Notes: generated by a model from the letters alone, not told the origin. Counted from the whole stretch's first letter, positions 37,401 through 56,548 are shown. The stretch is 61,265 nt of DNA, filler included, from 7 parts of 7 records of this genome joined end to end with filler, not necessarily neighbours in it; one strand, 5' to 3'. Numbers and translations: made by a program.

Positions 37401-39514
37401 TCCATCGTGAGGCGTTACGAGTGCGAATGGAGCTTCGCCTGCACGAGTGTGACCGTGAACTCTACCTTGCTTATGGGTGTGAAACGGATTTCTTCGAGAC
37501 CACTGCTCTTCATGGCTACGCTCAATTGCAACGGCGAGAAGGGGTAATATGCATGCCAAGTTTTTGAATGGTTGTGTGAAAGTATCGTTTCTTGCGTTTA
37601 TTATGTTTATGCACGACACTAGTCAGCCTTTCTCACAAACCACAATCTGCTGCTAGGCAATCGTTGCCTTGGAGAGGGAGTCTGTCACGCTCGTCGGGAA
37701 GACGGTCGCTCTTGAAATAGTCGACAGGATATTAGACACAATGCTGGATGGCTGGTGAGCAGTTTCGTCGGCACCGATATTTGACCGTTTATTGTTGACA
37801 GTGTTGTGTGTGTGGCGTTTACGAGCGCACGTGGTCCTTGGTTTGTTGCAGGTACTTTGGCGAGCGAGAGTCTGACTTTGCTGTTGCGGGATTCGTGCCA
37901 TCAATCAAACGCGAGGGGAAAATCACGCCATTTGATCCCCCAAGTGTTCACGAGACAAAACCTTTTCGCACCAAAGAGCAACGCAAAGCCCACCGACGCC
38001 GCGGCTTGCTGAAAAATAAGCAAGCGCCGATTCCCCAGCGCGTAAACCACGAAGTAGCTTTGCGGAAGGCAATTCGTGTTGGTTCTGACACTGAGCACGT
38101 GTTAAACGAGACTGAGCGTAACATCAAGTTTGGCCTTTTTGTTATTACGCTCATGTTTTTCCAGGTATGTTGTTGCCAAGCGTACAGCATGTTTCAAGCT
38201 TCAAATCAAGCGCGCCGGATTTTCATCATTTTTTGTTTGCGTGTTTTATTCTGTGCAGTCATCTTCAATGTTGAAGCGCGAGCAAAACACTTGGGGCGGT
38301 GTGTCAGATCCCCTAAAGGGAAGTAGGTCAAAAGGCAAAGCTTTGGATCGAAACAAGCAGAACGAGGAGCAAAAACGCCAGAAGCGTCAAAACGACAACA
38401 TTGCCAAACGAGAGCGCCTTGCGGCGCAGGCGAACGGGTTTGCGGCAGAGGGCCAGGCGGTTCGTTCATATTTTACAACGTGATTTTAGTGAGTGACGTT
38501 CAGATTCAGTGCCGCATCATCACGGGTTCATTTTGTGTTGTTGCTACTGACTGCAGAGAAAAGATGCACGAGCAAAAGCCGAACGCGACAAACGCCTTGC
38601 GAAATTGCGAGATGCCTCGAGGCTGCGAAATGCTCAAGTGAAGGCTGCACTGACCATCCAGGCAGGGTACCGTGGGTTTATGGACCGAAAGGTGTCCAAG
38701 GCATACGCAATTGAAAGGGCCGCAGAGGTTGCCCAGCATGCGCTCGAGAAAGCAGCAAGCATAAACGTCCAACGGTTCTGGCGTGGCTACGTTGCTCGTG
38801 AGATTGCGGGCGACCGTCGGGAGGAACTTTTGCTGTTCCTGGAGGCTTTGAAGCGCGAGGAAGCTAAAACGATGGAGGAGGAATACTACAAGTTGCATCC
38901 GATGGAGTTGCTAAAAAAGCAAATGCGGGAAGGCATGGTTCGTTGATGCAACGATTCTTTTGTGCAACGATTCTTTTGTGCCTGGGTCAGGCTGCATGAT
39001 TTTCAAACATCGTTCAAATTTCGAATCGCGTGTCTTGTGATTGTGCGCCATCAGAAAAAAGCTCAAGAAGACCCAGACTCTTTGGTATCAAAGTTGAATC
39101 TTCCGAACTGGTTCGATAAGCAATACGATCCGAAGCGTGATGGACGATCACGGGCTGGCAGTGAGGGTGACGATCGTGGGGAAAATACGTACGACAGCGA
39201 CGATGACGCGGAGGCGGCCATCAGCGGCGATAGTGTCGACGACAATGGTTCCCTGAATGAACCGAGACCACTTGGTGACGATGACGCGTATAGCGATGAG
39301 GAAGGTCCTGAACAAGAAGCGGAGGAGGTTTGTTGTGGTCGTGGATTGCTGGTGTTAATGGTTTCCAGTCGCCTGGGCTGACTTGTGTTGTACTTGCCTG
39401 TGCATGAAGGAGATCGAAGATGAAGAAGACGGCACGGGCCGAAGAACGAGACTTGAGCGGCGCTTGAAGTCGGCTGGGATATCGTCCGGTCTTGACACCG
39501 ATGATGAATTCTGA
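28461..39514 (+). CDS. Giant multi-exon protein: EF-hand pair, alpha/beta-hydrolase-like fold, long coiled coils, two IQ motifs, acidic tail
   Basis: FRYFDQKAEGHVSREQF and GLNNDGFIGFREF (EF-hands); VLGFGNGG..STEDD..SGH (hydrolase fold); IQAGYRG and VQRFWRG (IQ). Coding blocks are separated by ~100-200 nt GT..AG introns; last exon 39410-39514. Not every central junction was verified, so two genes cannot be excluded. Confidence 0.72.
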
Positions 39515-39621
39515 AATCAGCCGTCCGCGAATAATTTTAACGACACATCGTGCACCTACTCCATCTTGATTCGAATTGCTTCGCAGGCCCGTGTCGAAAG
39601 AACAATGTGCTTTGCCACAGC

Positions 39622-42600
39622 TTATTCAGCACTGTCATCTTTAACATTCTGAAATATACGCAACATATCAACGAGATGTTGGGCCTGCACACAGCGAAGC
39701 ACAAACGGGGTTATGTTAATTGCTCAATCCACTACGAACACAATTGGTGCGGCAGACTTGAACACATGTCAGCAACATCATGGTTTTCGCACACCTTCAG
39801 CTTGTCTGCAATGCACCGAACATAGACGACTTGAAACTGCCCCCGGGCTTCCAATTGAGCGACAAACCTTTTTGCTTCCCATCGCACTGCGCGGACTAAC
39901 GCCAGGTCGGGAATGGCTGCAGCACTTGCGATGACCTGCACACCACATGATTCCGTACGAGGTGAACTCAAAGGCATCGTGAAGCGCCCAGCTTCCGAGG
40001 GGAGAGCAGATATGTCAGGGAACCACAAAAGGTTCCCAACAATGCGCGTGGCTTGGCGCGCGCTCGGTCGTTGCGCAGGATCTGGCCGAAGAAAAAGTCC
40101 TGTGCGCAATGTTGATTAAGGCAATCAATATCGGCTGATTGGACATCAACCGTCAAAAATGAGATCTGCCAACAACAAACCAGCAATTTCCTCCAGTCGA
40201 GGGTATACGTCTGGCAGCAGGGGTGGGCGTGCTCTCGGAGCAAAAGACTGGCCGGTCTTGTCAACTTTCTGCCATAACCCACTTGGAAAGGGATGTTTTT
40301 GCCTCACCAAGTCGTAAAGCAAACAACCAAGCGCCCAAACATCAGCCTACATCACCAACAGTCAGACAGTGTCGAAAAGGGAGTTAGGAAACAGAATAAT
40401 TTCCGATCGACATCTCCAAGACACACGCAAAGACAATGACAAGAAATACCTTGCAGACTGCATTGAATCGGGCCTGGCGCGTCGCGTCGTCAAGGAGCTC
40501 ATCGTTTTTGCGAGCTGCTGCTGCGGCGGCGGCCTGGGCGGACAAGCCGAATAAGCCACGGCCACCTTTCGACTTGTTCTTCTTGTCATTGGTCAGATTT
40601 TCGGCAGCTTCTCTCTCCGCCGCAAGCTTGAGAATTTCTGGCGCCATGTTCAGAGAGTTGCCCCCAAACTCGTCACCCCGACCTAACGCAGTCGGACGCA
40701 GTTTACGAGAATGCTATTATTTGTCGATGCATCTCAAAAACTGCGCGCACACACAAACAAACACGTGCGGCAGCACCAACCATCGACAAGAGCCTCCCCA
40801 AAGTCGATAAGGCGAAGCTCGAGGTCGCTCCCTGACTTCACCATAATGTTGTCCAACTTCAGGTCGCGATGAATAATTCTTCGCTCCTCAAGCACGGCCA
40901 GGGCGTGTAAAATCTAATGAACAGCGGAATTGGGTCGCATGAGACGCTCAACATTTGGGCTGCATGCACTCCTCCGACTCTGCGCCATCAATCTACGCGA
41001 TACGGTACCATGAACGGACCTGAAGTACACACAACAGCAACACGCTCTCTGGCGGGCTTGCTCCATGCGCTTTGTGGTACCCATCGAGGTAATCCTGAAG
41101 CGCCGGAAATCGAAAACTGTGATCACCAGCCATGGGATGCAAGAGTCATTGTAAAATCCAACACAAGCAGCCCACGACAAACCTGGAGCGATTGCTTACA
41201 ACACTCCATGATGATGTATTCCGTTTTGCCGCGCCCAAGCTCGGCTTCCATAGGTGTGGGGTTAATGGTCTTTGCAACCAGGTGTGTGTAGCATTGCACG
41301 ATGTGACTCAGTGCCTCATCGCTGGACCGCAGTGAAACAGGAATACGGAAATCACGTAAAAATTTGTCTTTTTGGTGTTTGATAGCCTATCGATTCATGC
41401 ATTGAGTGTTTGCGATTCATTCAGGGCATTGTGTCCGTCACAAAGGCGAGAGAAGCAAACGGGGCAATGGCGGGCGCCCATAGACTGATGCACTCGCCAC
41501 AATACTGATTCGGGCTGGCGTACCTCGGCTTCCGATGCTCCTGCAAGGTCGTACAGTTTTTTCATGGCAAAACACCGACGCGCAGAGTCCGTGCGGCAGT
41601 GGACTTCGTAAACTTCAGCCGAGCAGCCACCGCCAATCTTCTTTCGTACATATAAATCCTCAAACCGACATTTCTTCAGCATACTCAGCGACAAGTTGTC
41701 ATACTCGCGGCAGCTGTTGAAAAGCTCCCTGTTGGACAAATATAGTATACAACCAAAAACCACATGACTGCTTGTACAGTCTGTCCACACACCCATAATG
41801 CTCCCACAGCCTGAGTTAACAAATTGCACAACAAACCTCAAAAATTGTGTAAGTTTGAATTGAACCATTTTTGTGTCTGCTGCAGAAGCTGTGGCTGGCG
41901 TTGGAGGTACAAGTTCAATCTCGGAAAGATGATCGTGCAAAGAAACTGCACCGTACAGAATTTCCGTACGATCAGGAAGATTTGAGAACGCCACTCCTAC
42001 CAAAATCAAAGTTCCGCCATTTAGCCAAAGACTCTCATTCCATGGGTGCTCCCATGAAAGAGGTGCAGCAAGCACCACATACGACTCTCACCTGCGTTGT
42101 GCCCATCGACGATAAAGGACAGCGTTTTAGCACGACGATCGGCCTCAACAGTTACAGTGCTGCCGGGTCCAATCCCGTGTCTGAGGTAAATCTGTTGTGC
42201 AGGTCCACCGTGCCCGACTTTGCCGTCACGTTGGAATATGGCCCAGCCGTTTTCCGTCTCGTTGACAAATGAATGCTTATCCACTTGTGCCGTTGCTACG
42301 CCCAAAGAAGCATGCTTCCCAGCGTGAATTTTGAAAGTCCATCGCTGAACTCCTGGTTGCCAATCACCATCCTCATCAAAGCCGCTTCCTCCAGGCGTCA
42401 AAAGCTCATCAATATTTGCACTGGGACTAGCTCGTTCGAATGTCTGGAGAAGAGGCCGAAAAAGCACGAGGCCATCGCCCCACGTCGGCCGCTGCCCACG
42501 AGGAACAACTTTTTGGAAACGAAGAGATTCCACGGAGGGATCCAGGCTTGGAACGATTACGACGGATGGATTTCGCCAAACCACAGCACCGGATGTCAGG

Positions 42601-44324
42601 GACGGCTGAACAGACTTTGGCACAGCCGGTGGAGCGTGTGCAGGACGAGGTGGCGGGCGAGTCATTGGCAGAGATCGAGCAGCCGAGGCAGACGTATTTC
42701 CAGGTGCAGTAGATTGGCTCATTGATGGGGTCCATGCGTCTTTGTCGTCGCAAACTTCAACTGCCAAAAGACGAACACGGTCGTCAGGGTCGCGCAATGA
42801 GACCGCACCATGCAGCACGAGCAGGTCCCCATTGCCTGTTGTCTGTGGAATGTTGCTGAATGCGACACCTAAGTCAAGCCCGTTCACACCGAAAGACAAC
42901 TCCCCTTTTGCGCGATTTAGGTGCACGCTGACGATGTCCCCCGCAGAATAAGCGCTACACCCCAAATAGCAAGAATAACTTGAGTGAGGTAAGTGCAGGG
43001 TGGCCTTCGTCTGATTGACGCGCAGTGGGGTAATGGAAAGAACGGCGTCCAATACGTAACTCACGGTCGGTGATAGGCAGTGGCCGCCGGGCCTCCATGG
43101 CCAACACATCCGCTTCGCTGGTAGAAGCCCCACCCCCCCTGTGAGGCGCTGTTGAGAAAGTCGCCATCGGGGTTGGAAAGGGCCTGCGTTGCTGGCATGA
43201 CTCCTACTGTGATGTGTGTTGAGGTCGCCGAGAGAATTTCAAAGTACCTGAGCATAATAACGTTGCATCACCAACGGACCATCACGACACGAAAGCGAAA
43301 GGGGCACTCACTGCCAGGCCACTCCCTATCCGCACAAAAATAACGGACCAAACTGCAGTTCCAGACGAAATCCCTCTGGCAGCAAGGACAGTGCGACAGT
43401 GCCAAGAAGGCTTCGCAGCCTCGCAGCGAGCAACGACTCTGTCTGGTCCGCTCAGAACAATGTCACTGCCACAGCACGCTTTCCAGAAACCATTGTGGGC
43501 GGGGTTGATTGGGCTATGTCCACCGCCATGGCTCTTGGCAACTGGTCGTGCGGGCGAACAGGCTGCAGCATGAGCTTCAATTTCGGCGGACACGCATGCA
43601 GACGAAGACTCCAGGACATGACCAAAAGTTGCTTGGCCCAAGGATGCAATTTTCTCCAACGGTGGCTTCGATAGCACTCCCTCCAGTCGCGTCATTCCAC
43701 GGTATCTAACAGCGACATGCAAATCAGCAATACAGGACCTTCCTGTGAGACAACGTGACAAGCACAAGCAAACGCACGCGACAACAGTGCTTCTTTAATG
43801 TAAAATTCACTCCAACCACGAACGCACTCGACAATATCGCCGGCTTTATAAAGAGTGAACGCGCCATGATATGCATTGCCCGTCGGCATGTCGCGGAACG
43901 CCACGCCAACAGAGCGTCCGTTGACAAAGTACTCGAGGGTTCCCACGTCTGCATTGACCTCAACTGCAATCTCATCGCCTTGGTTAATGCGACCAACTCG
44001 AAAAAACGGAGTCTCTGCGGCTCCTTTGTGGCCAATGCACCCAGTGAGGGCGAACAGGCCCCAACCATGCTCCGTCTCGTTGAGGAAGGTGTCCCACTTA
44101 ATCATCGGATGACAGACTCCAAAAGTGGTGGAGCGTCCACGCACAAGCACGAAGGAGAAGCGCGCACAGCCCTGGCGCACAGCGTCTTTCGTGAGCACCA
44201 GGCCGTTTCTCCACCCAGTTTCATTCTTGGTTGCAGAATAGTAGCGCCCAGGTTGACCAGCAGCGCCAATACCCACTGGCTGGATGTTCACAGCGCTCCC
44301 ACCGAGGCTGAGAAGTGACGCCAT
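39622..44324 (-). CDS. Three SPRY/B30.2 domains fused to a PINK1-like Ser/Thr kinase, multi-exon
   Basis: Three SPRY units (GW..F...G.VGH.G; F.VNG...GVAF..P; HGAVSL). Kinase motifs IGGGCSAEVYE, AMKK, HRDLKLDNI, IDFG, GGNSLNMAPE, KADVWALG, RPSAR, reconstructed across GT..AG introns. Stop TAA at 39624-39622. Confidence 0.88.
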
Positions 44325-44702
44325 TCCTTCTTCCCTGTCTCTCTGTCTCTGCCTCTCTCGCTCTCACGTCCTTTCACCGTCGCTGTCTTTGCCTCCTGGA
44401 TCCGTTTCTGCCCGTCCTTCGCTCGCTCTGAGCGGAAACGCACGTGGTGAGAGAGTAGTGAGTAAGTGAGTTCCAAAACACCCAGAGGCTCGAGACTGTT
44501 CTCGGATTCTTCCTGGTTCTGAGAGTTCAACCCTGCTCTCTGAGCTCCACAGCGTTACAGAGAGGCGGGAGTGAGGCACACCGGGAGATTTCAGGCTTGC
44601 GCATGTTTCCGGCGACCGCGCTTGCGTGCGAGCCACAGCGAAGTGCAGTCACATTCTGAAGGCACAAAGAGTGCAAGCAACAACAACCACAACAACAACA
44701 AC

Positions 44703-44802
44703 NNNNNNNNNNNNNNNNNNNNNNNNNNNNNNNNNNNNNNNNNNNNTTAATTAATTAANNNNNNNNNNNNNNNNNNNNNNNNNNNNNNNNNNNNNNNNNN
44801 NN
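44703..44802. other. Artificial contig spacer
   Basis: N44-TTAATTAATTAA-N44; preceded by (CAA)n. Confidence 0.99.
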
Positions 44803-44803
44803 C

Positions 44804-45202
44804 CTGGAAACCGCCACCGACTGGGACAACGTCGACAAACTCTTAATCCAGATTGAAGAAAACCTCCGTAACCAACTGAATGAAAAGAAAGAGCTGGTTC
44901 ATGTTTTCACCCATCTTTCGCATTTCTATACCCAGGGCTGCAGCCTCTACACCACCTATGTGTTCCGGGTGGCCGACAGCTACGAGGAAACCCTGGCGCG
45001 CTGGAAAACCCTGAAAACCAGCACGTCGGACATTATCGTTAACAACCGGGGCACCATTAGCCATCAACATGGCGTTGGCAAGGATCATGCGCCCTTCCTG
45101 CCCGTCGAAAAAGGCGAGCTGGGCATGCTGGCCATCGGATCTCTTTGCCAGACATTCGATCCCGCCGGCTTGATGAATCCACAAACACTGGTTCAGAAGT
45201 AA
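44804..45202 (+). CDS. FAD-linked oxidase C-terminus (alkyl-DHAP synthase-like), 5' truncated
   Basis: LETATDW..THLSHFYTQGCSLY..GTISHQHGVGKDH..FDPAGLMNP; TAATG overlap with the next gene. Confidence 0.85.
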   Translation: METATDWDNVDKLLIQIEENLRNQLNEKKELVHVFTHLSHFYTQGCSLYTTYVFRVADSYEETLARWKTLKTSTSDIIVNNRGTISHQHGVGKDHAPFLPVEKGELGMLAIGSLCQTFDPAGLMNPQTLVQK

Positions 45203-46830
45203 TGCCTCTAACGCGCGAACAAAAGCTTGACCAGCTGGCCCGTGGCGACGCCGCCTTCGATGTGGTTGTGGTCGGCGGGGGCATCACCGGAGCGGGCATC
45301 GCTCGCGAAGCCGCCGGCAGCGGCTTGAGCACCTTACTGGTGGAGCAACGGGACTTCTCCTGGGGGACCTCCAGCCGTTCTTCGAAAATGATCCACGGTG
45401 GTCTGCGCTACCTCGGCAGCGGGCACTTTCGCCTGACACGGGACGCGGTGCGGGAACGGGAGCGCCTGCTGGCAGAGGCGCCGGGGCTAATCGACCCCCT
45501 GCGCTTCATAATGCCTCACTACCAGAAACAGTTCCCCGGCCCTAAGCTGTTCCAGCTGCTGCTGCGTCTGTACGACCGACTTGCGGGCAAGCCGTCCAGG
45601 CAGCGACTCAGCCCGGCAGACACATTGCAGTGGGTGCCGGGCCTCTCCACCAGCCATCTGACCGGTGCCAGCGGCTTCACCGATGCCGTTACCGACGATG
45701 CGCGTCTGGTGCAACGTGTACTCGAAGAAGCCGAGGCCGATGGTGCGATCTGCCTGAACTATATGCAGGCGCAGGCAGTTCTCCGCAACAGTGAGACCAA
45801 CGCCGTCACAGGCGTTCACCTTCTGGACACCAGCGCGGATTCCCAAACGCCGGAAATGACCGTCAACACCCCACTGGTTATTAACGCCACGGGTGCCTGG
45901 GCGGGCCAGTTGAAGCAGACCGATAGTAGTGACACCCGAATACGTCCCCTGAGGGGAAGCCACCTGGTTGTTCCCTATTCGCGGCTTCCGGTGTCCTGCT
46001 CGGTGTCGCTGTTTCATCCGGAGGACCATCGGCCTGTATTTGCCTTCCCATGGCAAGGCACGACGGTGCTGGGGACCACGGACCTCGACCACACAGAGTC
46101 GCTGTCCCGTGAGCCGGCCATCAATCGGGAGGAGCTGGACTACCTGCTGCAGATCTCCTCAAGGCTGTTTCCCGCCAGTGCCATCACCGAGCGCGACGTG
46201 ATCGCAACCTGGGCGGGAGTGCGCCCTGTCGTCACCCAATCACCCGTGCTTAATCAATCAAAGGGAACGCGAAAACCCTCAAAGGAGAATCGGGAACATG
46301 TGATTTGGTCCGACAATGGCCTGATCAGCGTCGCCGGTGGCAAGTTAACCACCTTCCGGTTGATTGCCCGGGAAGTACTCGAACGGGGGCAAATGCCGGG
46401 TTTTCACCTCAGAAACAATGCGCTGCCGGTATTTGCATCGCCCCCGGACCTCGAACGTCCTGACGCCATCAACCATCAGAACTGGCATCGTTTGCAGGGC
46501 TTCTACGGCCCTGCTCTGCCAGAGGTCCTGCGTGCCGGCACTCATGAAACCGTTGCCGGCACCGACACCCTGTGGGCGGAGTTGGCCTGGGCGGCCGCCA
46601 ATACCGGCGTGATCCACTTGGATGACCTGATGTTGCGCCGTACCCGGCTCGGGCTGGTGCTTCCAGAAGGCGGTGAAGACCTGCTCCCGGACATACGTTG
46701 CCTGTGCAAGCCCATCCTGGCCTGGGACGACACCACCTGGGAACGGGAAGAGGCACGTTATCTGGAGCTCTGGCGATCTTGCTACTCGCTTCCGGCCACA
46801 TTTCCGGCCAAACAAGAGGCCACTGGATGA
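45202..46830 (+). CDS. FAD-dependent glycerol-3-phosphate dehydrogenase/oxidase-family protein
   Basis: VVGGGITGAG, GTSSRSSKMIHGGLRYL, DDARL, GGKLTTFR. ATG at 45202 overlaps the upstream stop. Confidence 0.92.
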   Translation: MPLTREQKLDQLARGDAAFDVVVVGGGITGAGIAREAAGSGLSTLLVEQRDFSWGTSSRSSKMIHGGLRYLGSGHFRLTRDAVRERERLLAEAPGLIDPLRFIMPHYQKQFPGPKLFQLLLRLYDRLAGKPSRQRLSPADTLQWVPGLSTSHLTGASGFTDAVTDDARLVQRVLEEAEADGAICLNYMQAQAVLRNSETNAVTGVHLLDTSADSQTPEMTVNTPLVINATGAWAGQLKQTDSSDTRIRPLRGSHLVVPYSRLPVSCSVSLFHPEDHRPVFAFPWQGTTVLGTTDLDHTESLSREPAINREELDYLLQISSRLFPASAITERDVIATWAGVRPVVTQSPVLNQSKGTRKPSKENREHVIWSDNGLISVAGGKLTTFRLIAREVLERGQMPGFHLRNNALPVFASPPDLERPDAINHQNWHRLQGFYGPALPEVLRAGTHETVAGTDTLWAELAWAAANTGVIHLDDLMLRRTRLGLVLPEGGEDLLPDIRCLCKPILAWDDTTWEREEARYLELWRSCYSLPATFPAKQEATG

Positions 46831-48389
46831 ACACGACCGAACCGCTCATCCTGGCTATCGACAACGGCACCCAGAGCGTGCGGGCCCTGCTGTTCGACAC
46901 TCAGGGCAATCTCGTTGGCAAGGGCAAACAGGAGATTGAACCCTACTTCTCCGAGCAGCCGGGCTGGGCGGAACAACATCCGGAGTATTTTTGGGAAAAC
47001 CTCGGTAAAGCGTGCCAACTGCTCTGGAAAAACACCGATGCCTTGCCGGCGCAAGTGGCCGGGGTAACGCTGACCACCCAGCGTGGCACCGTTGTAAATC
47101 TGGACGAACATGGCAAGCCACTCCGGCCAGCCATCATCTGGCTCGACCAACGTCACGCCCGTGTTGAAGGGCCTGTGCCCGGTTTATGGGGCTGGTTGTT
47201 CAAACTGCTTCGTCTGGAATCCACCGTTGACCGCTTCCGAGAAAAAACCCAGGCCAACTGGATTGCCCAGAACCAACCCGAGATCTGGGCGGCCACCCGG
47301 CATTACCTGCTGCTGTCGGGCTACCTGAACTACCGTCTGACAGGCCAGTTCAGAGACTCTGTGGGCAGCCAGGTGGGGTATATCCCGTTCGACTACAAAC
47401 GCCACCAGTGGGCCGGCCAACGTGATTTCAAGTGGCTCACCATGCCCGTTCGCCGTGAGATGTTGCCGGAGCTGGTTAAGCCCGGCGATAAGATCGGCAA
47501 CCTCACCGAAGACGCGGCCAGGCACCTTGGCCTGCCGGCGCCACTGCCAGTGATTGCTGCGGCATCGGACAAGGCCTGCGAAATACTCGGCTCCGGTGGC
47601 CTGACACCAGATGTCGGCTGCATGAGCTACGGCACTACCGCTACCATCAACACCACCAGCAAGCGTTACCTGGAACCGGTTCGCATGATGCCGCCCTATC
47701 CCTCCGCCCTGCCCGGTCACTATTCCACCGAGGTGATGATCTACCGGGGCTTCTGGATGGTGAGCTGGTTCAAGCGCGAATTCGGTCTGCGGGAACGGAA
47801 ACTGGCGGAGCAGAAAGGCGTGGAGCCGGAAGTCCTGTTTGATGAACTGGTTCGGGCCGTTCCCGCCGGTTCGATGGGGTTGATGCTGCAACCCTACTGG
47901 TCACCCGGGGTTCGCCAGCCGGGGCCGGAAGCCAAGGGCTCCATTATCGGGTTTGGCGACGTCCACACCCGCTCCCACATCTACCGAGCCATACTGGAAG
48001 GCTTGGCCTACGCCCTGCGCGAAGGCAAGGAGCGGATCGAGAAACGCAGTGGCGTCCCTATCCGTAGGCTGAGAGTCGCCGGGGGCGGTTCTCAGAGCGA
48101 TGCTGCCATGCAACTGACCGCCGATGTTTTCGGACTGCCCGCAGAACGGCCTCATACCTACGAAACGTCCGGTCTTGGCGCAGCCATCGACGCCGCTGTT
48201 GGTCTGGGGCTTCATCCGGATTTCGAGACGGCGGTGAACGCGATGACCCGAGTGGGCGATGTCTTCCATCCGCAGGCCGACACCCAGAAACTCTACGAGA
48301 GCCTGTATCGTGAGGTGTACCTGAAGATGTACCCCCAGCTTCAGCCGCTGTACCGAAAAATCCGCGATATTACCGGGTATCCCAATTAG
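46827..48389 (+). CDS. FGGY-family carbohydrate kinase
   Basis: LAIDNGTQSVRA, IIWLDQR, SYGTT, RAILEGLAY, AGGGSQS; ATGA overlap with the GlpD-like gene. Confidence 0.93.
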   Translation: MNTTEPLILAIDNGTQSVRALLFDTQGNLVGKGKQEIEPYFSEQPGWAEQHPEYFWENLGKACQLLWKNTDALPAQVAGVTLTTQRGTVVNLDEHGKPLRPAIIWLDQRHARVEGPVPGLWGWLFKLLRLESTVDRFREKTQANWIAQNQPEIWAATRHYLLLSGYLNYRLTGQFRDSVGSQVGYIPFDYKRHQWAGQRDFKWLTMPVRREMLPELVKPGDKIGNLTEDAARHLGLPAPLPVIAAASDKACEILGSGGLTPDVGCMSYGTTATINTTSKRYLEPVRMMPPYPSALPGHYSTEVMIYRGFWMVSWFKREFGLRERKLAEQKGVEPEVLFDELVRAVPAGSMGLMLQPYWSPGVRQPGPEAKGSIIGFGDVHTRSHIYRAILEGLAYALREGKERIEKRSGVPIRRLRVAGGGSQSDAAMQLTADVFGLPAERPHTYETSGLGAAIDAAVGLGLHPDFETAVNAMTRVGDVFHPQADTQKLYESLYREVYLKMYPQLQPLYRKIRDITGYPN

Positions 48390-48498
48390 CGCGAGAAACC
48401 GAACAATCTCTTGAATTTAGCCGTCACTCCGGTAAAACTCTGGATCAGTCACAACAACAATCACTCGGTTCCACCCCCAGAGCACAAAGGCAAGCCCG

Positions 48499-49341
48499 AT
48501 GTCGGCCTTAGACTACCTCGTACCCTATGACTTCTCGCCGCTCACCATATTGAGTTTCGTGCTCGTTCTGGCGTTATACGGGTACGGCCTGGTCAGGATG
48601 CCTGCTGACGACCGGCCCGGAAGCGGTCGGATACTGGTGTTTGTGGTGGGCGTTATGCTTTGCTACGGCGTGATGCAGACCCGTTTCGATTACTACTCCC
48701 AGTACATGTTCTTTGTTCACCGGGGCCAGCATCTGATACTGCACCACCTTGGGCCGATCCTGATTGCCCTGTCTAACCCCCTTCCGGTGATGCGTTTCCT
48801 CTACAGCCTGATCAATCCCGGCGTACGGCGAGCGCTAATACCGCTGGGGTGGATTTACCGTTTTCTCCAGCACCCGGCGATTGCCTCATTCCTGTTTGTG
48901 GGGCTGATCTACTTCTGGCTGTGGCCGCCAATCCACTTCGACGCCATGCTCAGCCGGGATCTGTACTGGATCATGAACTGGAGCATGCTACTGGACGGTA
49001 TGCTGTTCTGGTGGTTGATCTTTGACCCACGTTCACCCGTCATCAGCGACGCTCTGGGCTACGGCAAACGCATCCTTCTTCTGGCCCTGGTTGCCATCCC
49101 CCAGATGATTCTGGGCGCCACCATCGTGTTCTCAAGGGGCATGGTGTACGACGTGTACGAAGTCTGCGGTCGTGCCTGGCCAATGCCGCCAGAAACGGAC
49201 CAGTTGCTGGGCGGATTGCTGACCTGGATTCCCCCGGCGATGATGAGCATTCTCGGCATTCTGATTATCCTTCGACGTGCCATGCGTGAAGATGGCAAGG
49301 TGTCGCCCTATAACGAAAAGCTGAAGGCCAGCCATTCATGA
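48499..49341 (+). CDS. Cytochrome c oxidase assembly protein (Caa3_CtaG family)
   Basis: Multi-TM; FFVHRGQHLILHH, DQLLGGLLTWIP. Confidence 0.85.
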   Translation: MSALDYLVPYDFSPLTILSFVLVLALYGYGLVRMPADDRPGSGRILVFVVGVMLCYGVMQTRFDYYSQYMFFVHRGQHLILHHLGPILIALSNPLPVMRFLYSLINPGVRRALIPLGWIYRFLQHPAIASFLFVGLIYFWLWPPIHFDAMLSRDLYWIMNWSMLLDGMLFWWLIFDPRSPVISDALGYGKRILLLALVAIPQMILGATIVFSRGMVYDVYEVCGRAWPMPPETDQLLGGLLTWIPPAMMSILGILIILRRAMREDGKVSPYNEKLKASHS

Positions 49342-49955
49342 AAAACCGGTTCCTACCCTGCAGTCATAAAGCGATCTCTACCATGGCACTTTTGGCGTCC
49401 CTGGTGATGCTCGGTGGGTGCTTTGGCGACGATGAAAACTGGAATGGCAAAGACATCAGCGGCCTGATGCCGGAACTTGCCTTCGAGCTGACTGGCACCT
49501 CCGGCGACACGGTGACGGCCGAGCAAACCGACGGCAATATCCGGCTGCTTTTCTTCGGCTTCACCTCCTGCCCTGATATCTGCCCCGCCACACTCCAGAA
49601 GTTGTCCAGAGCGGTGAAAGATTTACCGGAAGCGTTGCGGACGGACACGCAGATTGTCTTTGTCAGCGTGGACCCGCAACGGGACACCCCAGAACGCATC
49701 GACAGCTACGTAAGCTTTTTCAGCGACCGGGCCATCGGCCTGACCGGCGAGGAACCGGCGCTCAGGGAACTCAGTAAGCGTTACCGCACCACCTTTGGTT
49801 ACGACGAGCCAGATGCGGAAGGCAACTACAACGTCTCGCACAGCGGTGCCGTGTATGTGTTCGATCGCGAAGGCAAGGCTCGCCTGTTGATCCGTCCAGA
49901 GCTGAGTGTGGAGGATATCCGTACGGATTTGGTGGCGTTGGCTGAGGAAAGCTAA
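49338..49955 (+). CDS. SCO/SenC copper chaperone, probable lipoprotein
   Basis: FGFTSCPDICP (CxxxC), VSVDPQRD, conserved His in VSHSG, lipobox LGGC. Alternative start at 49383. Confidence 0.93.
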   Translation: MKNRFLPCSHKAISTMALLASLVMLGGCFGDDENWNGKDISGLMPELAFELTGTSGDTVTAEQTDGNIRLLFFGFTSCPDICPATLQKLSRAVKDLPEALRTDTQIVFVSVDPQRDTPERIDSYVSFFSDRAIGLTGEEPALRELSKRYRTTFGYDEPDAEGNYNVSHSGAVYVFDREGKARLLIRPELSVEDIRTDLVALAEES

Positions 49956-49967
49956 CGCAACACCAGA

Positions 49968-51191
49968 TCACGAGACTATGCCGCGCTCCCTTAGGCTCTC
50001 TATTTCGCCAGAAGAGAGGCCAACAATAGTCTCAAGGACTTGTTTTGACTGTTCCCCCAACAGCGGAGGCGCCGTCCTGTAACTTACCGGTGTCAGCTTC
50101 AGCCTGATCGGATTGCCAACCGTCGGGACATCGCCCAGCGATGGATGTTGAACAGACTGTTTCATTCCCCGCGCAAGAACCTGTGGATCCTCAAATACCT
50201 GATCCAGGGTGTTAACCGGCCCACAGGGCACCCCTGAACGCTCCAGAATCTGCACCCATTCCTGGGTTGACCGCATCACCGTGGCCTGCCGCAGCCTGGG
50301 AATCAATTCCTTTCGATTCGCCACGCGAGCCCGATTTGTCGCAAAACGCTCATCGCTCGCCCACTCCGGATGCCCGAGCACATCGCACAAGCGGGAGAAC
50401 TGCTCATCGTTACCGACCGTTAGCACCATGTTGCCGTCTGCGGTAGGGAAATCCTGATAAGGGACGATATTGGGATGGGCATTACCCATCCGCCCTGGCG
50501 CCTTGCCCGTAGTCAGGTAATTCATGGCCTGATTCGCCAGACAGGCTACCTGCACATCCAGCAGCGCCGCCTCCACATACTGCCCCTCTCCCGTACGGTC
50601 ACGGTGACTGAGCGCAGCGAGCACACCAATGGTGGCATACAGCCCGGTCATGATGTCTGTCAGTGCTACACCGACCTTCATTGGCCCGGCGCCGGGCTCG
50701 CCGTCCGGTTGCCCGGTGATGCTCATAAGCCCGCCCATGGCCTGGATCAGGAAATCATATCCGGGCCGATTCGCGTAAGGGCCATCCTGGCCAAATCCGG
50801 TGATCGAGCAGTAGATGAGTTTGGGGTTGATACGTTTCAGGCTGTCGTAATCCAGGCCATAACGTTTGAGGCCCCCGACCTTGAAGTTTTCAAGGATGAC
50901 GTCCGACTCTGCGACCAGTTTTCGGATCAGTTCCTGCCCTTCGGGATGGGCGATATCGACCGCAAGGGACTGCTTGTTTCGATTGGCGGTCAGGAAGTAG
51001 GCAGAGAGATCTGCATTACCATCAGCCCCCTGCAGATATGGTGGCCCCCAGGAGCGGGTGTCGTCCCCGGATTTTGGGCGCTCAATTTTGATAACCTCTG
51101 CGCCGAGATCCCCAAGGATCTGCCCTGCCCAGGGACCAGCCAGCACTCTGGAGAGATCCAGGACACGCAAGTGAGATAGGGCACCAGTCAT
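49968..51191 (-). CDS. CaiB/BaiF class III CoA-transferase
   Basis: LRVLDLSRVLAGP, NRNKQS, ENFKVG, PGYD; RBS AAGGAG upstream. Confidence 0.95.
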   Translation of the reverse strand: MTGALSHLRVLDLSRVLAGPWAGQILGDLGAEVIKIERPKSGDDTRSWGPPYLQGADGNADLSAYFLTANRNKQSLAVDIAHPEGQELIRKLVAESDVILENFKVGGLKRYGLDYDSLKRINPKLIYCSITGFGQDGPYANRPGYDFLIQAMGGLMSITGQPDGEPGAGPMKVGVALTDIMTGLYATIGVLAALSHRDRTGEGQYVEAALLDVQVACLANQAMNYLTTGKAPGRMGNAHPNIVPYQDFPTADGNMVLTVGNDEQFSRLCDVLGHPEWASDERFATNRARVANRKELIPRLRQATVMRSTQEWVQILERSGVPCGPVNTLDQVFEDPQVLARGMKQSVQHPSLGDVPTVGNPIRLKLTPVSYRTAPPLLGEQSKQVLETIVGLSSGEIESLRERGIVS

Positions 51192-51222
51192 TTAATTCTC
51201 CTTTACTCAATCAATTTAGCTC

Positions 51223-51849
51223 CTATCCCCCCTCATACTCCCGGACCAGTGCCTCCAGAAAATAGAGACCAGCGGAGCTCAAAAAGCAGCGATCAGCTCC
51301 GGCGCGAAACAGCAGATTGCGTTTATCCAGATAATCCAGGGCTTCCGGCACCCCTTTTTCAAAGCGTGCCGCCCTGAGAATCTCCTGATACTCCTCATCG
51401 CCCGCCAACGCCGCCAGGTCCTGCTCATTCAATCCGGCATCGGGCCGGCCAAGGTATTCGAGGTCTCGACCGCTGCGCGCGAAATAACGCCCGATCAGCA
51501 GCAAGATCACCTGCACCCGGAAGGCGTTCTCATCGTGCTCTTCGTTCTCTTCGTCACTGCTTTCCTTGAGAAAGAAAAACGCGCCGCGTTCGTTAAACAC
51601 CAGCTCGCTGCCCAAGTGCTCGTAGAATGTCCGGAAATGGGACAGGTGGTTGTACAGCAAGTTGTAGAGCGGATTCGCCCGCAGCTCGGAGCGGTTGCTG
51701 TCCCACACATCCCGCACAATCACCCGGCCGGCCTGAAATTCCCGGTAGATCGCGGCGCTGTGGGCCGGCAGGATCTGCTCGAAGCTGCTCGAACTTTGGG
51801 ACTGGTCCGGGGATTCGGTGGTGTCTATCGCGTCAGAGAATTTAGGCAT
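51223..51849 (-). CDS. mksE: MksE-like KITE subunit of an Mks/Wadjet-type condensin
   Basis: ~208 aa; IYREFQAGRVI..LYNLL...FRTFYEHLGSELVFNERGAFFFL resembles the MksE pattern as I recall it. ATG at 51849 overlaps the upstream stop. Confidence 0.65.
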   Translation of the reverse strand: MPKFSDAIDTTESPDQSQSSSSFEQILPAHSAAIYREFQAGRVIVRDVWDSNRSELRANPLYNLLYNHLSHFRTFYEHLGSELVFNERGAFFFLKESSDEENEEHDENAFRVQVILLLIGRYFARSGRDLEYLGRPDAGLNEQDLAALAGDEEYQEILRAARFEKGVPEALDYLDKRNLLFRAGADRCFLSSAGLYFLEALVREYEGG

Positions 51850-51983
51850 GGTGTTGCTCCAGGCGGCGCTTTCGGTAGACAAACTGTTCGCTGTCGGATG
51901 ACTGGTCCAGGATTCGGAAACGGTTGGTGGTCACCACTTGCAGTCCCTCCGGTGGCGAATTGACCAGCCGGTTCAGGGCTGCC
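51842..51983 (-). CDS. C-terminal fragment of the gene upstream of mksE (possible kleisin-like subunit), 5' truncated
   Basis: Open frame AALNRLVNSPPEGLQVVTTNRFRILDQSSDSEQFVYRKRRLEQHHA* with an 8-nt overlap onto the next ATG. Identity is inferred from position only. Confidence 0.5.
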
Positions 51984-52083
51984 NNNNNNNNNNNNNNNNN
52001 NNNNNNNNNNNNNNNNNNNNNNNNNNNTTAATTAATTAANNNNNNNNNNNNNNNNNNNNNNNNNNNNNNNNNNNNNNNNNNNN
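51984..52083. other. Artificial contig spacer
   Basis: N44-TTAATTAATTAA-N44. Confidence 0.99.
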
Positions 52084-52084
52084 C

Positions 52085-52105
52085 GGCATGGGCGGCATGA
52101 TGTAA
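52085..52105 (+). CDS. groEL: Last codons of chaperonin GroEL (GMGGMM*)
   Basis: ggc atg ggc ggc atg atg taa is the typical GGM-repeat tail, and a strong terminator follows. Only 6 codons are visible. Confidence 0.75.
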   Translation, partial: GMGGMM

Positions 52106-52145
52106 ATCACGCCGTAGGGTTTTCGAACCCTTCGCTGACAGAATT

Positions 52146-52176
52146 AAGGGGCGCATCTTTTGATGTGCCCCTTTTT
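52146..52176 (+). terminator. Intrinsic terminator after groEL
   Basis: AAGGGGCGCATC-tttt-GATGTGCCCCTT-TTT. Confidence 0.85.
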
Positions 52177-52214
52177 CGTTGGCACGTCCCGCGCGGCTGG
52201 CCTAAGCAGTCGCT

Positions 52215-53063
52215 ATGCGTATTTTCCTTTTGACCGCCCTTGTGATGATCGCCTTTGCCGCGAACTCTGTTCTGACACGCTTTGCCATTGCGGGCGGGCA
52301 TATCGACCCGACGGGCTTTGCCGTGGTGCGGGTCATATCGGGTGCGGCGATGCTGTGGCTGTTCCTGACGCTGCGCGGCGGGCGCTTGCAGATTTTCAGC
52401 CGCACACGTGCCTTTGGCGCACTGACCTTGGCGGTGTATATCATCGGATTTTCGCTGGCTTACCTTACGCTGGATGCGGGGCTGGGGGCGTTGATTTTGT
52501 TTGGTGTGGTGCAGATTGCGATGTTTGCCCATGGCGCATTGTTCGGGGTCACGCCGACCCCGCGCAAGATGATCGGTGCGGCAGTTGCCTTTGCCGGGTT
52601 GGTGCTGGTTCTATGGCCAAGCGCCGCCGTGCAGGTTGATCCCGTTGGTGCCGTGCTGATGATTGCCGCCGGTCTGGGCTGGGCCGCCTATACGATCATC
52701 GGCAAAGGGTCTGATGATCCGCTGGCGAACACTGCGGGTAATTTTCTGATCTGCGCGCCCATCGTCGCGTTATTGATGCTGGTGCAGAACACGTTTTACA
52801 CCCCCACGGGGCTGATTGTCGCCATTCTGTGCGGCGCTGTGACATCGGGGCTGGGCTATGCCTTGTGGTACGCGGTTTTGCCGAAACTGATGCAATCCAC
52901 GGCGGCCGTTGTTCAATTGTCTGTGCCGGTGATTGCGATCCTTGCGGGTGCCGCGATCTTGGCCGAACCACTGGACCTCAAGGTCATTTTGGCGACCGTG
53001 CTTGTCCTTGGCGGGATCGGTTTGGCGGTCAGCGGACGATCAACTCAAGCGGGTCGTAGCTGA
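52215..53063 (+). CDS. DMT/EamA-family transporter
   Basis: About 10 TM helices; AFAANSVLTR, VTSGLGYALWY, QLSVPVIA. Confidence 0.92.
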   Translation: MRIFLLTALVMIAFAANSVLTRFAIAGGHIDPTGFAVVRVISGAAMLWLFLTLRGGRLQIFSRTRAFGALTLAVYIIGFSLAYLTLDAGLGALILFGVVQIAMFAHGALFGVTPTPRKMIGAAVAFAGLVLVLWPSAAVQVDPVGAVLMIAAGLGWAAYTIIGKGSDDPLANTAGNFLICAPIVALLMLVQNTFYTPTGLIVAILCGAVTSGLGYALWYAVLPKLMQSTAAVVQLSVPVIAILAGAAILAEPLDLKVILATVLVLGGIGLAVSGRSTQAGRS

Positions 53064-53481
53064 TCGGGGCATCGCCGAATGCAATGCCGATCAAGCTGTC
53101 GGGTTTGACCCGCAATTCCGCCATTTGCGCGTAGGTAACCCACCGCCGGTCTGATACGATATTCTCGACGTCTTGCCATGCGGGTGCAATTTCCGTTGAT
53201 CCGATGACCGTACACCGAAAATAGAAATCGACCTGATGGAAGCCGGCTGTCGGATCGTGGAATTCATTGACCAGACACGGCGCGCCGACATCAATCCGCA
53301 GGCCTGTTTCCTCAAACACCTCGCGGGCGAGGTTATCAGGCAGGGACGCGCCCAGTTCGACCCCGCCACCGGGGGCGCACATCAGATCGCTTTGACCATT
53401 GGCATAGGCGTTGACCAACAGCAGCCGATCGTCGTGAACAATCACAGCTCGTACCGCCAGACGCGGGCCATTTTTCGCCAT
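53029..53481 (-). CDS. NUDIX hydrolase
   Basis: Nudix box GGGVELGASLPDNLAREVFEETGL. Confidence 0.92.
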   Translation of the reverse strand: MAKNGPRLAVRAVIVHDDRLLLVNAYANGQSDLMCAPGGGVELGASLPDNLAREVFEETGLRIDVGAPCLVNEFHDPTAGFHQVDFYFRCTVIGSTEIAPAWQDVENIVSDRRWVTYAQMAELRVKPDSLIGIAFGDAPISYDPLELIVR

Positions 53482-53552
53482 TTGTTGGTCTTTCCTTTAT
53501 CGCTGCCGTCAAAGCATTTCACATGTCGGAATTTCAGTCTATCTGATCACAC

Positions 53553-54362
53553 ATGAAAACCGTTCTTTCCTCCTTTATCCTGTCCTTCGCGTTGAATGGC
53601 TACGCTTCTGCGCAATCCGATCTGACGCAGGCAGGCGAGGGGCGCTGCGTTGTGCTGTTGCATGGGCTGGCGCGTACGGAAACGTCCTTTGCCGTCATGG
53701 AATCGTCGCTGGAAACCGAAGGCTATAAGGTCGTGCGCCCCGGCTATCCCTCGACCGAGGCCCCGGTAGAAGAGTTGACCCGGCGTACCTTGCCTGATGC
53801 CGTTGCAGCCTGTGGCACCGCCAAAGTGGATTTCGTAACCCATTCGATGGGCGGTATCCTGCTGCGGCAATGGGTATCGGAAGTGGGTGATGAACAGGTG
53901 GGCCGCGTGGTCATGCTTGCCCCGCCCAATCACGGCAGCGAGGTCGTAGATGAATTGGGCGCTATTCCTGCATTTGACTGGATGAACGGCCCAGCGGGCG
54001 CGCAGATGGGGACAGGTGAGGATTCGCTGCCCCGCCGGTTGCCGCCAGTGACGTTCGATCTGGGGGTGATTGCGGGCACTCAATCGCTGAACCCCTATTT
54101 TTCGTCGCTTTTACCGGGCCGCGACGATGGCAAAGTTTCCGTGAAATCCACGCGCATTGATGGCATGCGGGACTTTCTGATGCTGCCGGTGACCCACACG
54201 TTTATCATGATGAACCCCACGGTGATTGCGCAGACGATGATCTATCTGAATACGGGCAAGTTTGATCGGTCGCTGACTTTTGTAGATGCGGTCCTTGATT
54301 CCATTGGCTGCCCGGAAGGGGATTGCCTGCCCGGAGCGGAGGATAAAAATGCTAAACCTTGA
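53553..54362 (+). CDS. Secreted alpha/beta-fold esterase/lipase
   Basis: Signal peptide; [15 protein letters not shown] nucleophile, DDGKVSV, VTHTF. Confidence 0.88.
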
Positions 54363-55491: not shown

Positions 55492-56548
55492 TGATATTGA
55501 CGTGGCCCATTTTACGGCCCGCTTTCACGTCGACTTTGCCATATAGGTGGAGCGCTGTATCGTGTTGCTTGGCCAGTTCTGGCACGCGGTCCATGTCGTC
55601 ACCGATCAGGTTTTCCATCACCACATCGGCATAGCGGCTGCCATCGCCCAAGGGCCAGCCCGCGATGGCGCGAATGTGCTGTTCGAACTGGTCAATGGCG
55701 CAGCCGTTTTGCGTCCAATGGCCGGAATTATGCACGCGCGGGGCGATTTCATTCACGATAAACCCTTGCGGTGTCACGAACAGTTCCACACCCAGAACGC
55801 CGACATAATCAAGCGCGTTCAATATCTTGGCTGCCATCAACACGGCATCCATTCGCAAAGAGCCGGACAAATTTGCAGGCACAGTCGTTGTGTGGAGGAT
55901 GCCATCACGGTGGACGTTTTCGCCGGGATCGAAACAGGAAACCTCGCCCGAGGGGCTGCGTGCCGCGATAACGGAAACTTCGGAGGTGAAGTTGACGAAG
56001 CCTTCCAGAACCGCAGGGCTGCCAGCCATATCATCAAGCGCTGTCTGCGCGTCATCGGCAGAGCGCAGTCGCGATTGGCCTTTGCCGTCATAGCCAAACC
56101 GGCGGGTTTTCAAGATCGACGGCGTGCCGATGGTTTGCATCGCGGCATCAAGATCTCCGGCGCTGGCGATGTCAGCAAAGGGGGCGACGCGCAGGCCCAG
56201 CCCCTCAAGGAATGTCTTTTCGGTCAGGCGATCCTGACTGGTGCGCAAAGCCTCGCGATTTGGATGGATCGTGCGGATGGTTTCGATCACGTCCAACGCT
56301 TCGGTCGGGATGTTCTCGAATTCATAGGTGACAACATCAACGGCATTGGCAAACGCTTTGAGCGCTTCAACATCGTCATAGCCCGCAGTGGTGACGCGGT
56401 GGGCAACATCCGCGGCGGGCGGGTTCGCGCCGGGTTCAAAGATATGCGTGCGAAACCCCAGACGTGCGGCAGCGACAGAGAGCATCCGCCCCAACTGCCC
56501 GCCACCCAAAATACCGATGGTCGCACCGGTTGCCAAAGGATCAGTCAT
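55481..56548 (-). CDS. purK: N5-carboxyaminoimidazole ribonucleotide synthase
   Basis: [44 protein letters not shown]; start overlaps the purE stop. Confidence 0.97.

Follow-up and report, generated by a model that had tools for sequence, protein, structure and literature searches.

A marine-protist gene that joins three SPRY domains to a divergent protein kinase

A 13-exon gene of a marine protist joins three tandem SPRY domains to a divergent protein kinase in one polypeptide of 1147 aa. It lies on the minus strand of one contig piece (28036-44702) within a window of 61,265 nucleotides, in which seven contigs are joined by N/TTAATTAATTAA linkers. All positions below are counted along this window, and every feature of the gene is on its minus strand. 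The reading we favour, and think probable, is that the gene encodes a soluble SPRY-kinase with conserved segments flanking the kinase domain, which would dock through its SPRY domains and phosphorylate, and whose kinase would be classed by family as 'other'. A first-pass annotation of the same DNA had placed the kinase in the PINK1 family, a proposal we weigh toward the end of this article.

A spliced and transcribed gene

The SPRY-kinase gene is genuine, spliced and transcribed. Public sequencing runs were aligned to window positions 38000-44702, and a single contig of run X2, 12,842 nt long, holds all 12 joints of the gene, without the introns. The stretches that this contig skips have CT..AC ends on the plus strand, which is to say GT..AG on the minus strand. 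Eleven of the 12 joints were tabulated directly from X2 and the twelfth, between 43705 and 43828, was derived from the alignment of the same contig; each joint was moved by 0-2 nt to the sole equivalent canonical position. Over the same region, contigs of the DNA run X1 retain the introns. We infer that X2 is cDNA because introns are missing from its contig; X2 is recorded as RNA only by guess, and none of the runs listed as containing window sequence is recorded as RNA.

The X2 contig also continues into a convergent neighbouring gene on the plus strand (38000-39500), which has GT..AG joints of its own. Since it covers this neighbour too, the contig is an assembly rather than a single molecule, and is no proof of a single transcript.

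Removing the 12 GT..AG introns leaves one open frame that runs from an ATG at 44324 to a stop at 39622-39624; a further stop lies in frame 5' of the ATG. The ends of this frame are exactly those (39622-44324) that the first-pass annotation had given the gene, and all nine of its hand-spliced peptides occur in the translated product, including three that cross exon junctions. Splicing and translating, the check it had proposed, yields 13 exons and a single 1147-aa frame whose joints the X2 contig supports. It had also remarked that the ORF track hides the kinase, and so it does: ORF-based annotation misses the kinase because it is cut into eight short exons.

The SPRY part occupies the first five exons. 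A 5'UTR, extending 5' to at least 44672, leads into the coding part of exon 1 (43828-44324; aa 1-165 plus 2 nt), which holds SPRY1, a Pfam match at aa 63-161 (43842-44138). Exon 2 (43349-43705; aa 167-284) encodes a linker and the start of SPRY2, and aligns to SPRY2 of P0001, a truncated protein of the ortholog described below; exon 3 (43065-43247; aa 286-345) supplies the middle of SPRY2. Exon 4 (42092-42954; aa 347-633) carries the end of SPRY2, a Pro/Ser-rich linker and most of SPRY3, and exon 5 (41837-41996; aa 635-686) completes SPRY3 and begins a conserved pre-kinase segment.

That segment continues into exon 6 (41524-41728; aa 688-755), together with the glycine-rich loop, Lys743 and Ser752. 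Helix C, extra residues around beta4 and the hinge follow in exon 7 (41183-41386; aa 756-823), helices D and E in exon 8 (41020-41094; aa 824-848), and the HRD catalytic loop and DFG in exon 9 (40781-40913; aa 849-892). Exon 10 (40450-40682; aa 894-970) spans the activation segment as far as APE and then a low-complexity insert of about 60 aa (aa 909-968; 40456-40635). Helices F-H are in exon 11 (40181-40346; aa 971-1025). The kinase domain ends at about aa 1051 (position 40023) within exon 12 (39795-40099; aa 1027-1127), which also encodes most of a C-terminal extension; the remainder of the extension, aa 1128-1147, and the stop (39622-39624) are in the coding part of exon 13 (39622-39684).

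A counterpart in a second marine protist

An ortholog of 1075 aa with the same architecture is present on two seawater-metagenome loci, L001 and L002. It has 8 canonical introns and none in its SPRY part, and 7 of the 7 introns within its kinase and extension part match the positions of introns in the window gene. Its first exon is an uninterrupted frame from Met1 through SPRY1 and SPRY3 to the pre-kinase segment, ending at the splice site that the window gene uses in that segment, in the same codon phase. Compared across the two species, then, both the SPRY-kinase architecture and the intron positions are conserved, and the arrangement is therefore to be taken as functional and not as an accident of annotation.

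Identity between the two proteins varies by region, over a span of about 40-77% for the most part, at 50-60% in the SPRY domains, 50% in the pre-kinase segment, 58-77% in the kinase and 57% in the extension. Identity is low in the linker between SPRY1 and SPRY2 (24%) and in the activation-segment insert (34%), where 28 residues of the window protein face gaps in the alignment and, of the 32 that do align, 11 are identical. Among single exons it is 57% for exon 6, 76% for exon 7, 93% for exon 9 and 63% for exon 12.

Other relatives are few. Searched against longer proteins, exon 4 matched one of 7801 candidates, P0001, which is a truncated form of the ortholog (43% identical), and the C-terminal exon gave no match among 670 candidates at E<=1. 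At E<=10, exon 9 matched 4 of 17 candidates: P0002, which comes from the ortholog's organism, and P0003, P0004 and P0005, which have only the catalytic-loop region in common with the window kinase. A profile of exon 7, run against 1.84 billion representatives, returned three matches, namely P0002, a fragment (P0006) that represents a third organism, and P0007. The last of these, a 4795-aa bacterial repeat protein, we rejected as an artefact of repeats and composition. A correctly spliced full-length relative was not found in the protein collections searched by exon.

Three SPRY domains and no apparent leader

The SPRY profile of Pfam (PF00622) matches exon 1 with E 8.9e-7 and two stretches of exon 4 with E of about 4.6e-12 to 5.1e-12. 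SPRY2 of the window protein, which spans exons 2-4, was recognised through its 54% identity to P0001, an intron-free fragment of the ortholog in which the profile matches three stretches (E 1.4e-35). The three SPRY domains of the first-pass annotation are thus borne out, by Pfam in the window and by the three stretches of P0001. Against the PDB, P0001 finds 11 sequences at E<=0.01, every one of them a SPRY domain; they are those of HERC1, SPSB1/2/3, GUSTAVUS, TRIM9 and RanBP9/10, and they match SPRY2 with E 2.1e-5 to 3.8e-3. The likeness to these proteins is one of sequence in SPRY2, as seen in the ortholog. The setting differs: the SPRY domains of E3 ligases and scaffolds sit beside a SOCS box, RING, HECT or LisH/CTLH, whereas here there are three, in tandem, ahead of a kinase.

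A transmembrane segment had been described as missing, with SPRY domains in its place, and our hydropathy analysis agrees. No hydrophobic segment precedes the kinase: 19-residue Kyte-Doolittle windows of at least 1.4 are absent from aa 1-835, and just two stretches reach this value, aa 836-841 within the kinase core and aa 1076-1079. The first 40 residues include 3 basic and 1 acidic, and the N-terminus, which is kept in the ortholog, runs straight into SPRY1. Judged only from hydropathy, charge and N-terminal conservation, the protein appears to have no mitochondrial presequence.

The kinase domain and its flanks

The kinase belongs to the ePK superfamily, in which it is divergent; it is of Ser/Thr type and predicted to be catalytically competent. 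Pfam Pkinase (PF00069) recognises exon 9 (E 3.4e-9) and exon 11 (E 2.4e-4), the remaining kinase exons, taken singly, falling below the Pfam reporting level. The ePK motifs follow one another in canonical order, with the glycine-rich loop at aa 719-724, the catalytic lysine at Lys743, HRD at 863-865, DFG at 885-887 and APE at 906-908, and the ortholog keeps all the catalytic motifs, either unchanged or with conservative substitutions. The acidic residue of helix C is Asp762 in the window protein, at Lys+19, and Glu in the ortholog; Asp in this role is unusual for an active kinase. The residue at Lys+21 (764) is Phe. By a count from an alignment to STK33 and general kinase spacing, rather than from a PINK1 alignment, about 11 extra residues precede beta4, the stretch from beta4 to beta5 is longer by about 14, and none are added between beta2 and beta3.

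The C-terminal extension that follows the kinase is 96 aa long and conserved. AlphaFold, given the C-terminal exon in isolation, returned a model with a mean pLDDT of 40.6, which is unreliable, with one 20-residue helix in the conserved part. In the ESM Atlas, the C-terminal exon and exon 6 fell only into unnamed or generic kinase-fragment clusters.

Comparison with solved kinases

We compared the kinase with the PDB through 8 exon or exon-profile queries, covering exons 6, 7, 9, 11 and 12 and a combined profile of exons 7 and 9; as single exons these queries are short and of low power. The combined profile was built through P0002 (alignment A3). A further alignment with exon 8 added (A4) was discarded, exon 8 having been stacked on exon 7.

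The best-matching families vary by exon, and none leads throughout. Exon 6 is closest to the N-lobes of NEK7, GRK2/3 and ROCK1; exon 9 to a mixed set of kinases headed by a tandem EGFR construct, STK33, CDPK1, Aurora B and ASK1; the profile of exons 7 and 9 to STK33, a CDPK, CaMKIV and DYRK2; and exon 11 to GAK, NEK1, PDK1 and PLK1. There was no kinase among the 9 PDB matches of exon 7. Its match to Photorhabdus lectin repeats we put down to chance, the best E of 0.0013 being a sum over stretches that are each insignificant. The C-terminal exon found one unrelated PDB match as a single sequence and none as a profile, hence no relative, PINK1 included.

What NEK7, GRK2, ROCK1, STK33, CDPK1, CaMKIV, DYRK2, GAK, NEK1 and PDK1 have in common with the window kinase is the canonical catalytic core, and the catalytic-loop and helix-F exons score better with such generic Ser/Thr kinases than with PINK1. 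Unlike the window protein, these generic kinases have neither SPRY domains nor its C-terminal extension. For now the most sensible label is that of a lineage-restricted 'other' kinase, PINK1 being one of the candidates for a distant relative; this assignment is a default, drawn from comparison exon by exon.

A distant PINK1?

PINK1, or PTEN-induced kinase 1, is the ubiquitin Ser65 kinase of animals. It carries an N-terminal mitochondrial targeting sequence and a transmembrane segment, and its N-lobe has three insertions (Ins1-3), the third of which is needed for ubiquitin phosphorylation. The Glu of its helix C lies at Lys+21 (196/217 in the Tc protein, 219/240 in human), and its C-terminal extension is helical and lies packed against helices E, G and H. 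The first-pass annotation reached PINK1 by setting its nine hand-spliced peptides against what it took to be the corresponding human strings, which were not tool-derived. On that proposal the kinase is a PINK1-family member that has lost its leader and transmembrane segment or never had them, that is aimed by SPRY domains, and that phosphorylates ubiquitin or a ubiquitin-like domain. We consider this unlikely.

The activation segment is one place to begin. The residue after its unusual Gly-Gly-Asn, which we tentatively equate with position 411 of human PINK1, is Ser in the window protein and Ala in the ortholog, much as in some animal PINK1s; PMC10262784 reports that position 411 is a Gly in mammals, a Ser in zebrafish and an Ala in both fly and worm. 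Ser752, retained in the ortholog, lies at Lys743+9, which is the offset of the PINK1 autophosphorylation site, a Ser needed for ubiquitin phosphorylation (Lys196/Ser205 in Tc, Lys219/Ser228 in human; PMC5679756), although a Ser there is by itself weak evidence. The two sets of extra N-lobe residues, about 11 ahead of beta4 and about 14 on the way to beta5, fall where PINK1 has its insertions 2 and 3, but they are much shorter than the 33 (Ins2) and 29 (Ins3) residues of TcPINK1 (PMC5679756), and insertion 1 is absent. Nor does helix C fit, its acid being at Lys+19 in both window protein and ortholog and not at Lys+21.

The 96-aa extension compares with 84 aa in TcPINK1 (PMC5679756), and the conserved segment before the kinase is reminiscent of the NTE-CTE pairing described for PINK1 (bioRxiv 10.64898/2026.09.05.749644), but the extension has no detectable similarity to PINK1 chains. 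The likeness to PINK1 is therefore that of a divergent ePK with a Ser at Lys+9, extra N-lobe residues at two insertion positions, a conserved pre-kinase segment and an extension of similar length, set in a protist protein with three SPRY domains instead of the mitochondrial leader and transmembrane segment, both of which are absent.

Structure-database searches also count against kinship. As a single sequence, exon 6 did draw PINK1 chains as 3 of its 6 PDB matches (E 1.1-1.4), but with the exon 6 profile PINK1 ranked 35-37 of the best 60 (E 0.19-0.24), behind NEK7, GRK2/3 and ROCK1. It was not in the best 60 of the 1610 PDB matches of exon 9, the 319 of exon 11 or the 1214 of the profile of exons 7 and 9, and neither exon 7 nor the C-terminal exon matched it. 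P0003 was considered as a bridge, since louse PINK1 is its PDB match over the longest stretch (E 1.6e-6), and was rejected: PKC-eta scores higher, and P0003 matches the window family significantly only over the catalytic loop. Part of the string matched to PINK1 after the catalytic Lys is, moreover, not conserved in the ortholog. Of the original proposal, then, the single gene, the three SPRY domains, the lack of a leader-like hydrophobic segment and the conserved C-terminal extension have stood, while membership of the PINK1 family is not supported so far, PINK1 never being the top-scoring solved kinase in 8 short exon or exon-profile queries.

The stronger form of the proposal is that the kinase is a true, very distant PINK1, the first outside animals and the first not anchored to mitochondria, delivered to its targets by SPRY domains. 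This we rate as slightly more doubtful still. A ubiquitin-kinase function for the window protein is purely conjectural. The one evolutionary survey of PINK1 that we found sampled Metazoa only.

A fusion artefact, in which the transcripts of adjacent SPRY genes and a kinase gene were merged in the X2 contig, is very improbable even though that contig demonstrably merges the SPRY-kinase gene with its convergent neighbour, because the joints between SPRY3 and kinase (41996 to 42092 and 41728 to 41837) are canonical and keep one frame open for 1147 aa, the ortholog runs in one frame from Met1 through SPRY3 to the pre-kinase segment with a same-phase splice to the kinase exons, and neither species has a stop or a start signal between the two parts. 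That SPRY domains and kinase belong to one gene, as first proposed, is upheld by the X2 contig, the in-frame joints and the ortholog's uninterrupted first exon.

What the architecture may mean

Kinases gain specificity largely through accessory domains. By analogy with HERC1, SPSB, TRIM9 and RanBP9/10, the SPRY modules of our soluble SPRY-kinase may tether it to a partner protein or peptide motif, or to several, and the kinase would then phosphorylate whatever partner is bound, or proteins next to it. The conserved pre-kinase and C-terminal segments probably pack on the kinase core, where they could stabilise or regulate it. Among the papers listed by full-text searches of the main text of openly available journals, none describes a SPRY-kinase fusion or a PINK1 outside the metazoans, and our verdict is that a tandem triple SPRY ahead of a kinase is a new architecture.

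If the PINK1 link is true, the protein would be a soluble relative, lacking a leader, of a kinase of Parkinson's disease, and would hint at how ubiquitin phosphorylation arose. A true distant PINK1 would mean that the scaffold (Ser at Lys+9, an Ins3-like loop and flanking segments) predates the mitophagy pathway of animals, and that in the cytosol of marine protists it can be directed to new targets, ubiquitin or ubiquitin-like proteins possibly among them. If the link is false, the gene is still a clean case of a lineage-specific kinase hidden from ORF-based annotation.

A thirteen-exon gene joining SPRY domains to a kinase

The minus-strand gene in contig piece 28036-44702 is expressed and conserved, and its architecture is three SPRY domains plus a protein kinase. 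Its stop-to-stop frames (39622-44363) show SPRY-like and kinase-like peptides in short pieces. Three public sequencing runs were aligned to window 38000-44702. Run X1 is DNA, possibly the source of the assembly, and its contigs cross the region without skips, introns kept. The label of run X2 as RNA was only a guess. One X2 contig of 12,842 nt omits twelve stretches of 81-137 nt, every one CT..AC on the plus strand and hence GT..AG when the gene is read on the minus strand. Of the joints, eleven were tabulated directly and the twelfth, 43705/43828, was deduced from aligned pieces of the contig; at each, exactly one shift of 0-2 nt keeps the joined sequence and yields canonical ends. Counting four in a neighboring gene, sixteen introns kept by the DNA run are absent from this contig, from which we infer that X2 is cDNA-derived.

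Joined, the thirteen exons make one open frame of 1147 codons, from the ATG at 44324, with an in-frame stop 5' of it, to the stop at 39622-39624. These are the ends that the first-pass annotation had proposed (39622-44324), and all nine of its hand-spliced peptides, junction-crossing ones included, can be read in the spliced translation. Its placing of SPRY and kinase in a single gene also holds, because the frame is unbroken over the canonical joints from SPRY3 to the kinase and an ortholog has the same arrangement. The X2 contig itself was assembled from overlapping transcripts and is no proof of a single molecule, because it also enters the convergent neighbor. At 43133, in a coding C/G homopolymer of exon 3, the X1 contig is one base short, probably a homopolymer error of that contig; the X2 contig and the window agree there, and the frame is kept.

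The convergent neighbor, on the plus strand at 38000-39520, has four GT..AG introns (38161/38256, 38458/38556, 38936/39054 and 39325/39408) and an IQ-motif-like basic region. Since the stops of the two genes lie ~105 nt apart and a single X2 contig spans both, their 3' ends overlap or abut.

An ortholog from seawater

No spliced full-length relative was found in the protein collections searched. A search with exon 4 for longer proteins gave one match among 7801 candidates, the protein record P0001 (660 aa, 43% identical, SPRY three times), whose DNA lies on two seawater-metagenome contigs, L001 and L002, with 28 differences in 5405 positions. One of these differences falls where the intron preceding the C-terminal exon has its acceptor: L002 (13399-13401) has the canonical AG, L001 (4135-4137) has AT. 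Splicing L002 by homology guidance gave an ortholog of 1075 aa with nine exons and eight canonical introns. Its entire SPRY part is a single exon, and the window gene shares the positions of the seven introns within the kinase and extension. The two proteins are 50-60% identical in the SPRY domains, 50% in the pre-kinase segment, 58-77% in the kinase and 57% in the extension; lower values occur in the SPRY1-SPRY2 linker (24%) and in an insert in the activation segment (34%). Judged from identity by region, the three SPRY domains and all parts from SPRY3 to the C-terminus are under constraint. A third organism is known from a 77-aa fragment, P0006.

Anatomy of the protein

Pfam matches SPRY at three places, one of them in exon 1 and the other two in exon 4; these are the three domains originally described. 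Pkinase is found in the HRD and helix-F exons; the remaining kinase exons, each alone, gave no Pfam score, being too short or too divergent. The catalytic motifs are complete and in canonical order: glycine-rich loop (aa 719-724), Lys743, an acidic helix-C residue (aa 762), HRD (863-865), DFG (885-887) and APE (906-908). The catalytic apparatus is complete. Between APE and helix F lies a low-complexity insert of ~60 residues that includes an alanine run (aa 909-968, window 40456-40635); the ortholog's version has ~28 residues fewer and is poorly conserved, and the insert is probably a disordered loop. The kinase domain ends near residue 1051, leaving a C-terminal extension of 96 residues.

The first 40 residues, which hold three basic residues and one acidic, run directly on towards SPRY1. 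Hydropathy windows of 19 residues reach at least 1.4 only at 836-841, where the kinase has its buried core helix, and again at 1076-1079. None does so within the first 835 residues, which agrees with the earlier view that no membrane segment precedes the kinase.

Is the kinase a PINK1?

The first-pass annotation had assigned the kinase to the PINK1 family. We compared exons 6, 7, 9, 11 and 12, singly or as profiles, with all PDB sequences, including human, louse and beetle PINK1. Exon 6 alone had six matches at E<=10, three of them PINK1 (E 1.1-1.4), the best being a PKR/NEK7 chimera and NEK7. With a two-species profile of exon 6, PINK1 ranked 35-37 (E 0.19-0.24) in the best 60 of 81 matches at E<=10, led by NEK7-type kinases (E 0.0022), GRK2/3 and ROCK1. 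Exon 7 alone had nine matches at E<=10, none of them PINK1 or any other kinase; the best, Photorhabdus lectin repeats, we dismissed as chance. PINK1 was absent from the best 60 of 1610 matches of exon 9 alone at E<=1 (best: a tandem EGFR construct, STK33, CDPK1, Aurora B and ASK1), from the best 60 of 319 of exon 11 alone at E<=10 (GAK, NEK1, PDK1, PLK1), and from the best 60 of 1214 at E<=0.1 of an exon 7+9 profile tiled via P0002, a protein record from the ortholog's organism (the tandem EGFR construct, STK33, a CDPK, CaMKIV, DYRK2). None of the tested exons or profiles, then, singles out PINK1 among PDB sequences. Because the queries span 44-139 positions and PINK1 is a divergent kinase in its own right, these searches speak weakly against the PINK1 reading and do not refute it.

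The C-terminal extension is conserved, at 96 residues versus 84 in PINK1, and shows no likeness in sequence to PINK1's extension among PDB sequences: exon 12 alone had one match at E<=10, an unrelated protein (E 0.83), and its two-species profile had none. A structure model of the isolated C-terminal exon is unreliable, with a mean pLDDT of 40.6.

The available text of Kumar et al. 2017 (PMC5679756) gives as PINK1 hallmarks three N-lobe insertions and an 84-residue helical extension packing on helices E, G and H, with Ser205/Ser228 at catalytic Lys+9 and Glu at Lys+21. Ser752 of our protein is also at Lys+9 and is kept in the ortholog, whereas its conserved helix-C acid is at Lys+19. The position of insertion 1 is empty, and PINK1 insertions of 33 and 29 residues compare with ~11 and ~14 extra residues here. 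In the available text of a 2026 preprint, PINK1's extensions at the N- and C-terminus together stabilize the kinase; our kinase too is flanked on both sides by conserved segments, by analogy only. The originally noted PINK1 match after the catalytic Lys carries less weight because part of it is not conserved in the ortholog. PINK1-family membership is not established, and we consider it unlikely.

Other contigs of the window

The window, 61,265 bases in all, consists of seven contigs separated by six artificial linkers, each 44 N + TTAATTAATTAA + 44 N (5712-5811, 15268-15367, 21766-21865, 27936-28035, 44703-44802 and 51984-52083), and neighborhood across these points carries no meaning. The last two contigs (44803-61265) have a GC of 55-61% and long, uninterrupted frames of bacterial type, among them a DAO/GlpD-like oxidoreductase (45145-46827) adjoining an FGGY sugar kinase (46698-48386), a CoA-transferase III (49971-51191) and, at 59136-60845, an ATP-sulfurylase/APS-kinase fusion. 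It seems that a protist and bacteria are mixed in the assembly. Contig 15368-21765, with a GC of merely 34-35%, is probably from a further, different organism. Its two uninterrupted frames, 810 and 1126 aa long, encode a prolyl-oligopeptidase S9 family protein and a TMEM260-like O-mannosyltransferase. Other eukaryote-type contigs carry a tubulin-tyrosine-ligase family frame and an SNF2-helicase frame whose C-terminus bears a RING/U-box finger (1362-2828 and 9494-11905).

What the fusion may do

All 11 PDB matches of the P0001 SPRY are SPRY domains of HERC1, SPSB1-3/GUSTAVUS, TRIM9 and RanBP9/10, substrate-recognition modules that are its closest solved relatives. The SPRY domains probably act as docking modules, which would deliver the kinase to partners, and the conserved flanking segments would support the kinase fold. 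Ubiquitin as a substrate, which hangs on the PINK1 link, is speculation. In the main texts of the literature searched (supplements excluded), no paper described a SPRY-kinase fusion or PINK1 outside animals. The available text of the one evolutionary survey found samples Metazoa alone, and that of a Phytophthora kinome paper, supplements excluded, makes no mention of PINK, NKF or SPRY. The SPRY-kinase is a new accessory-domain variant of protein kinase.
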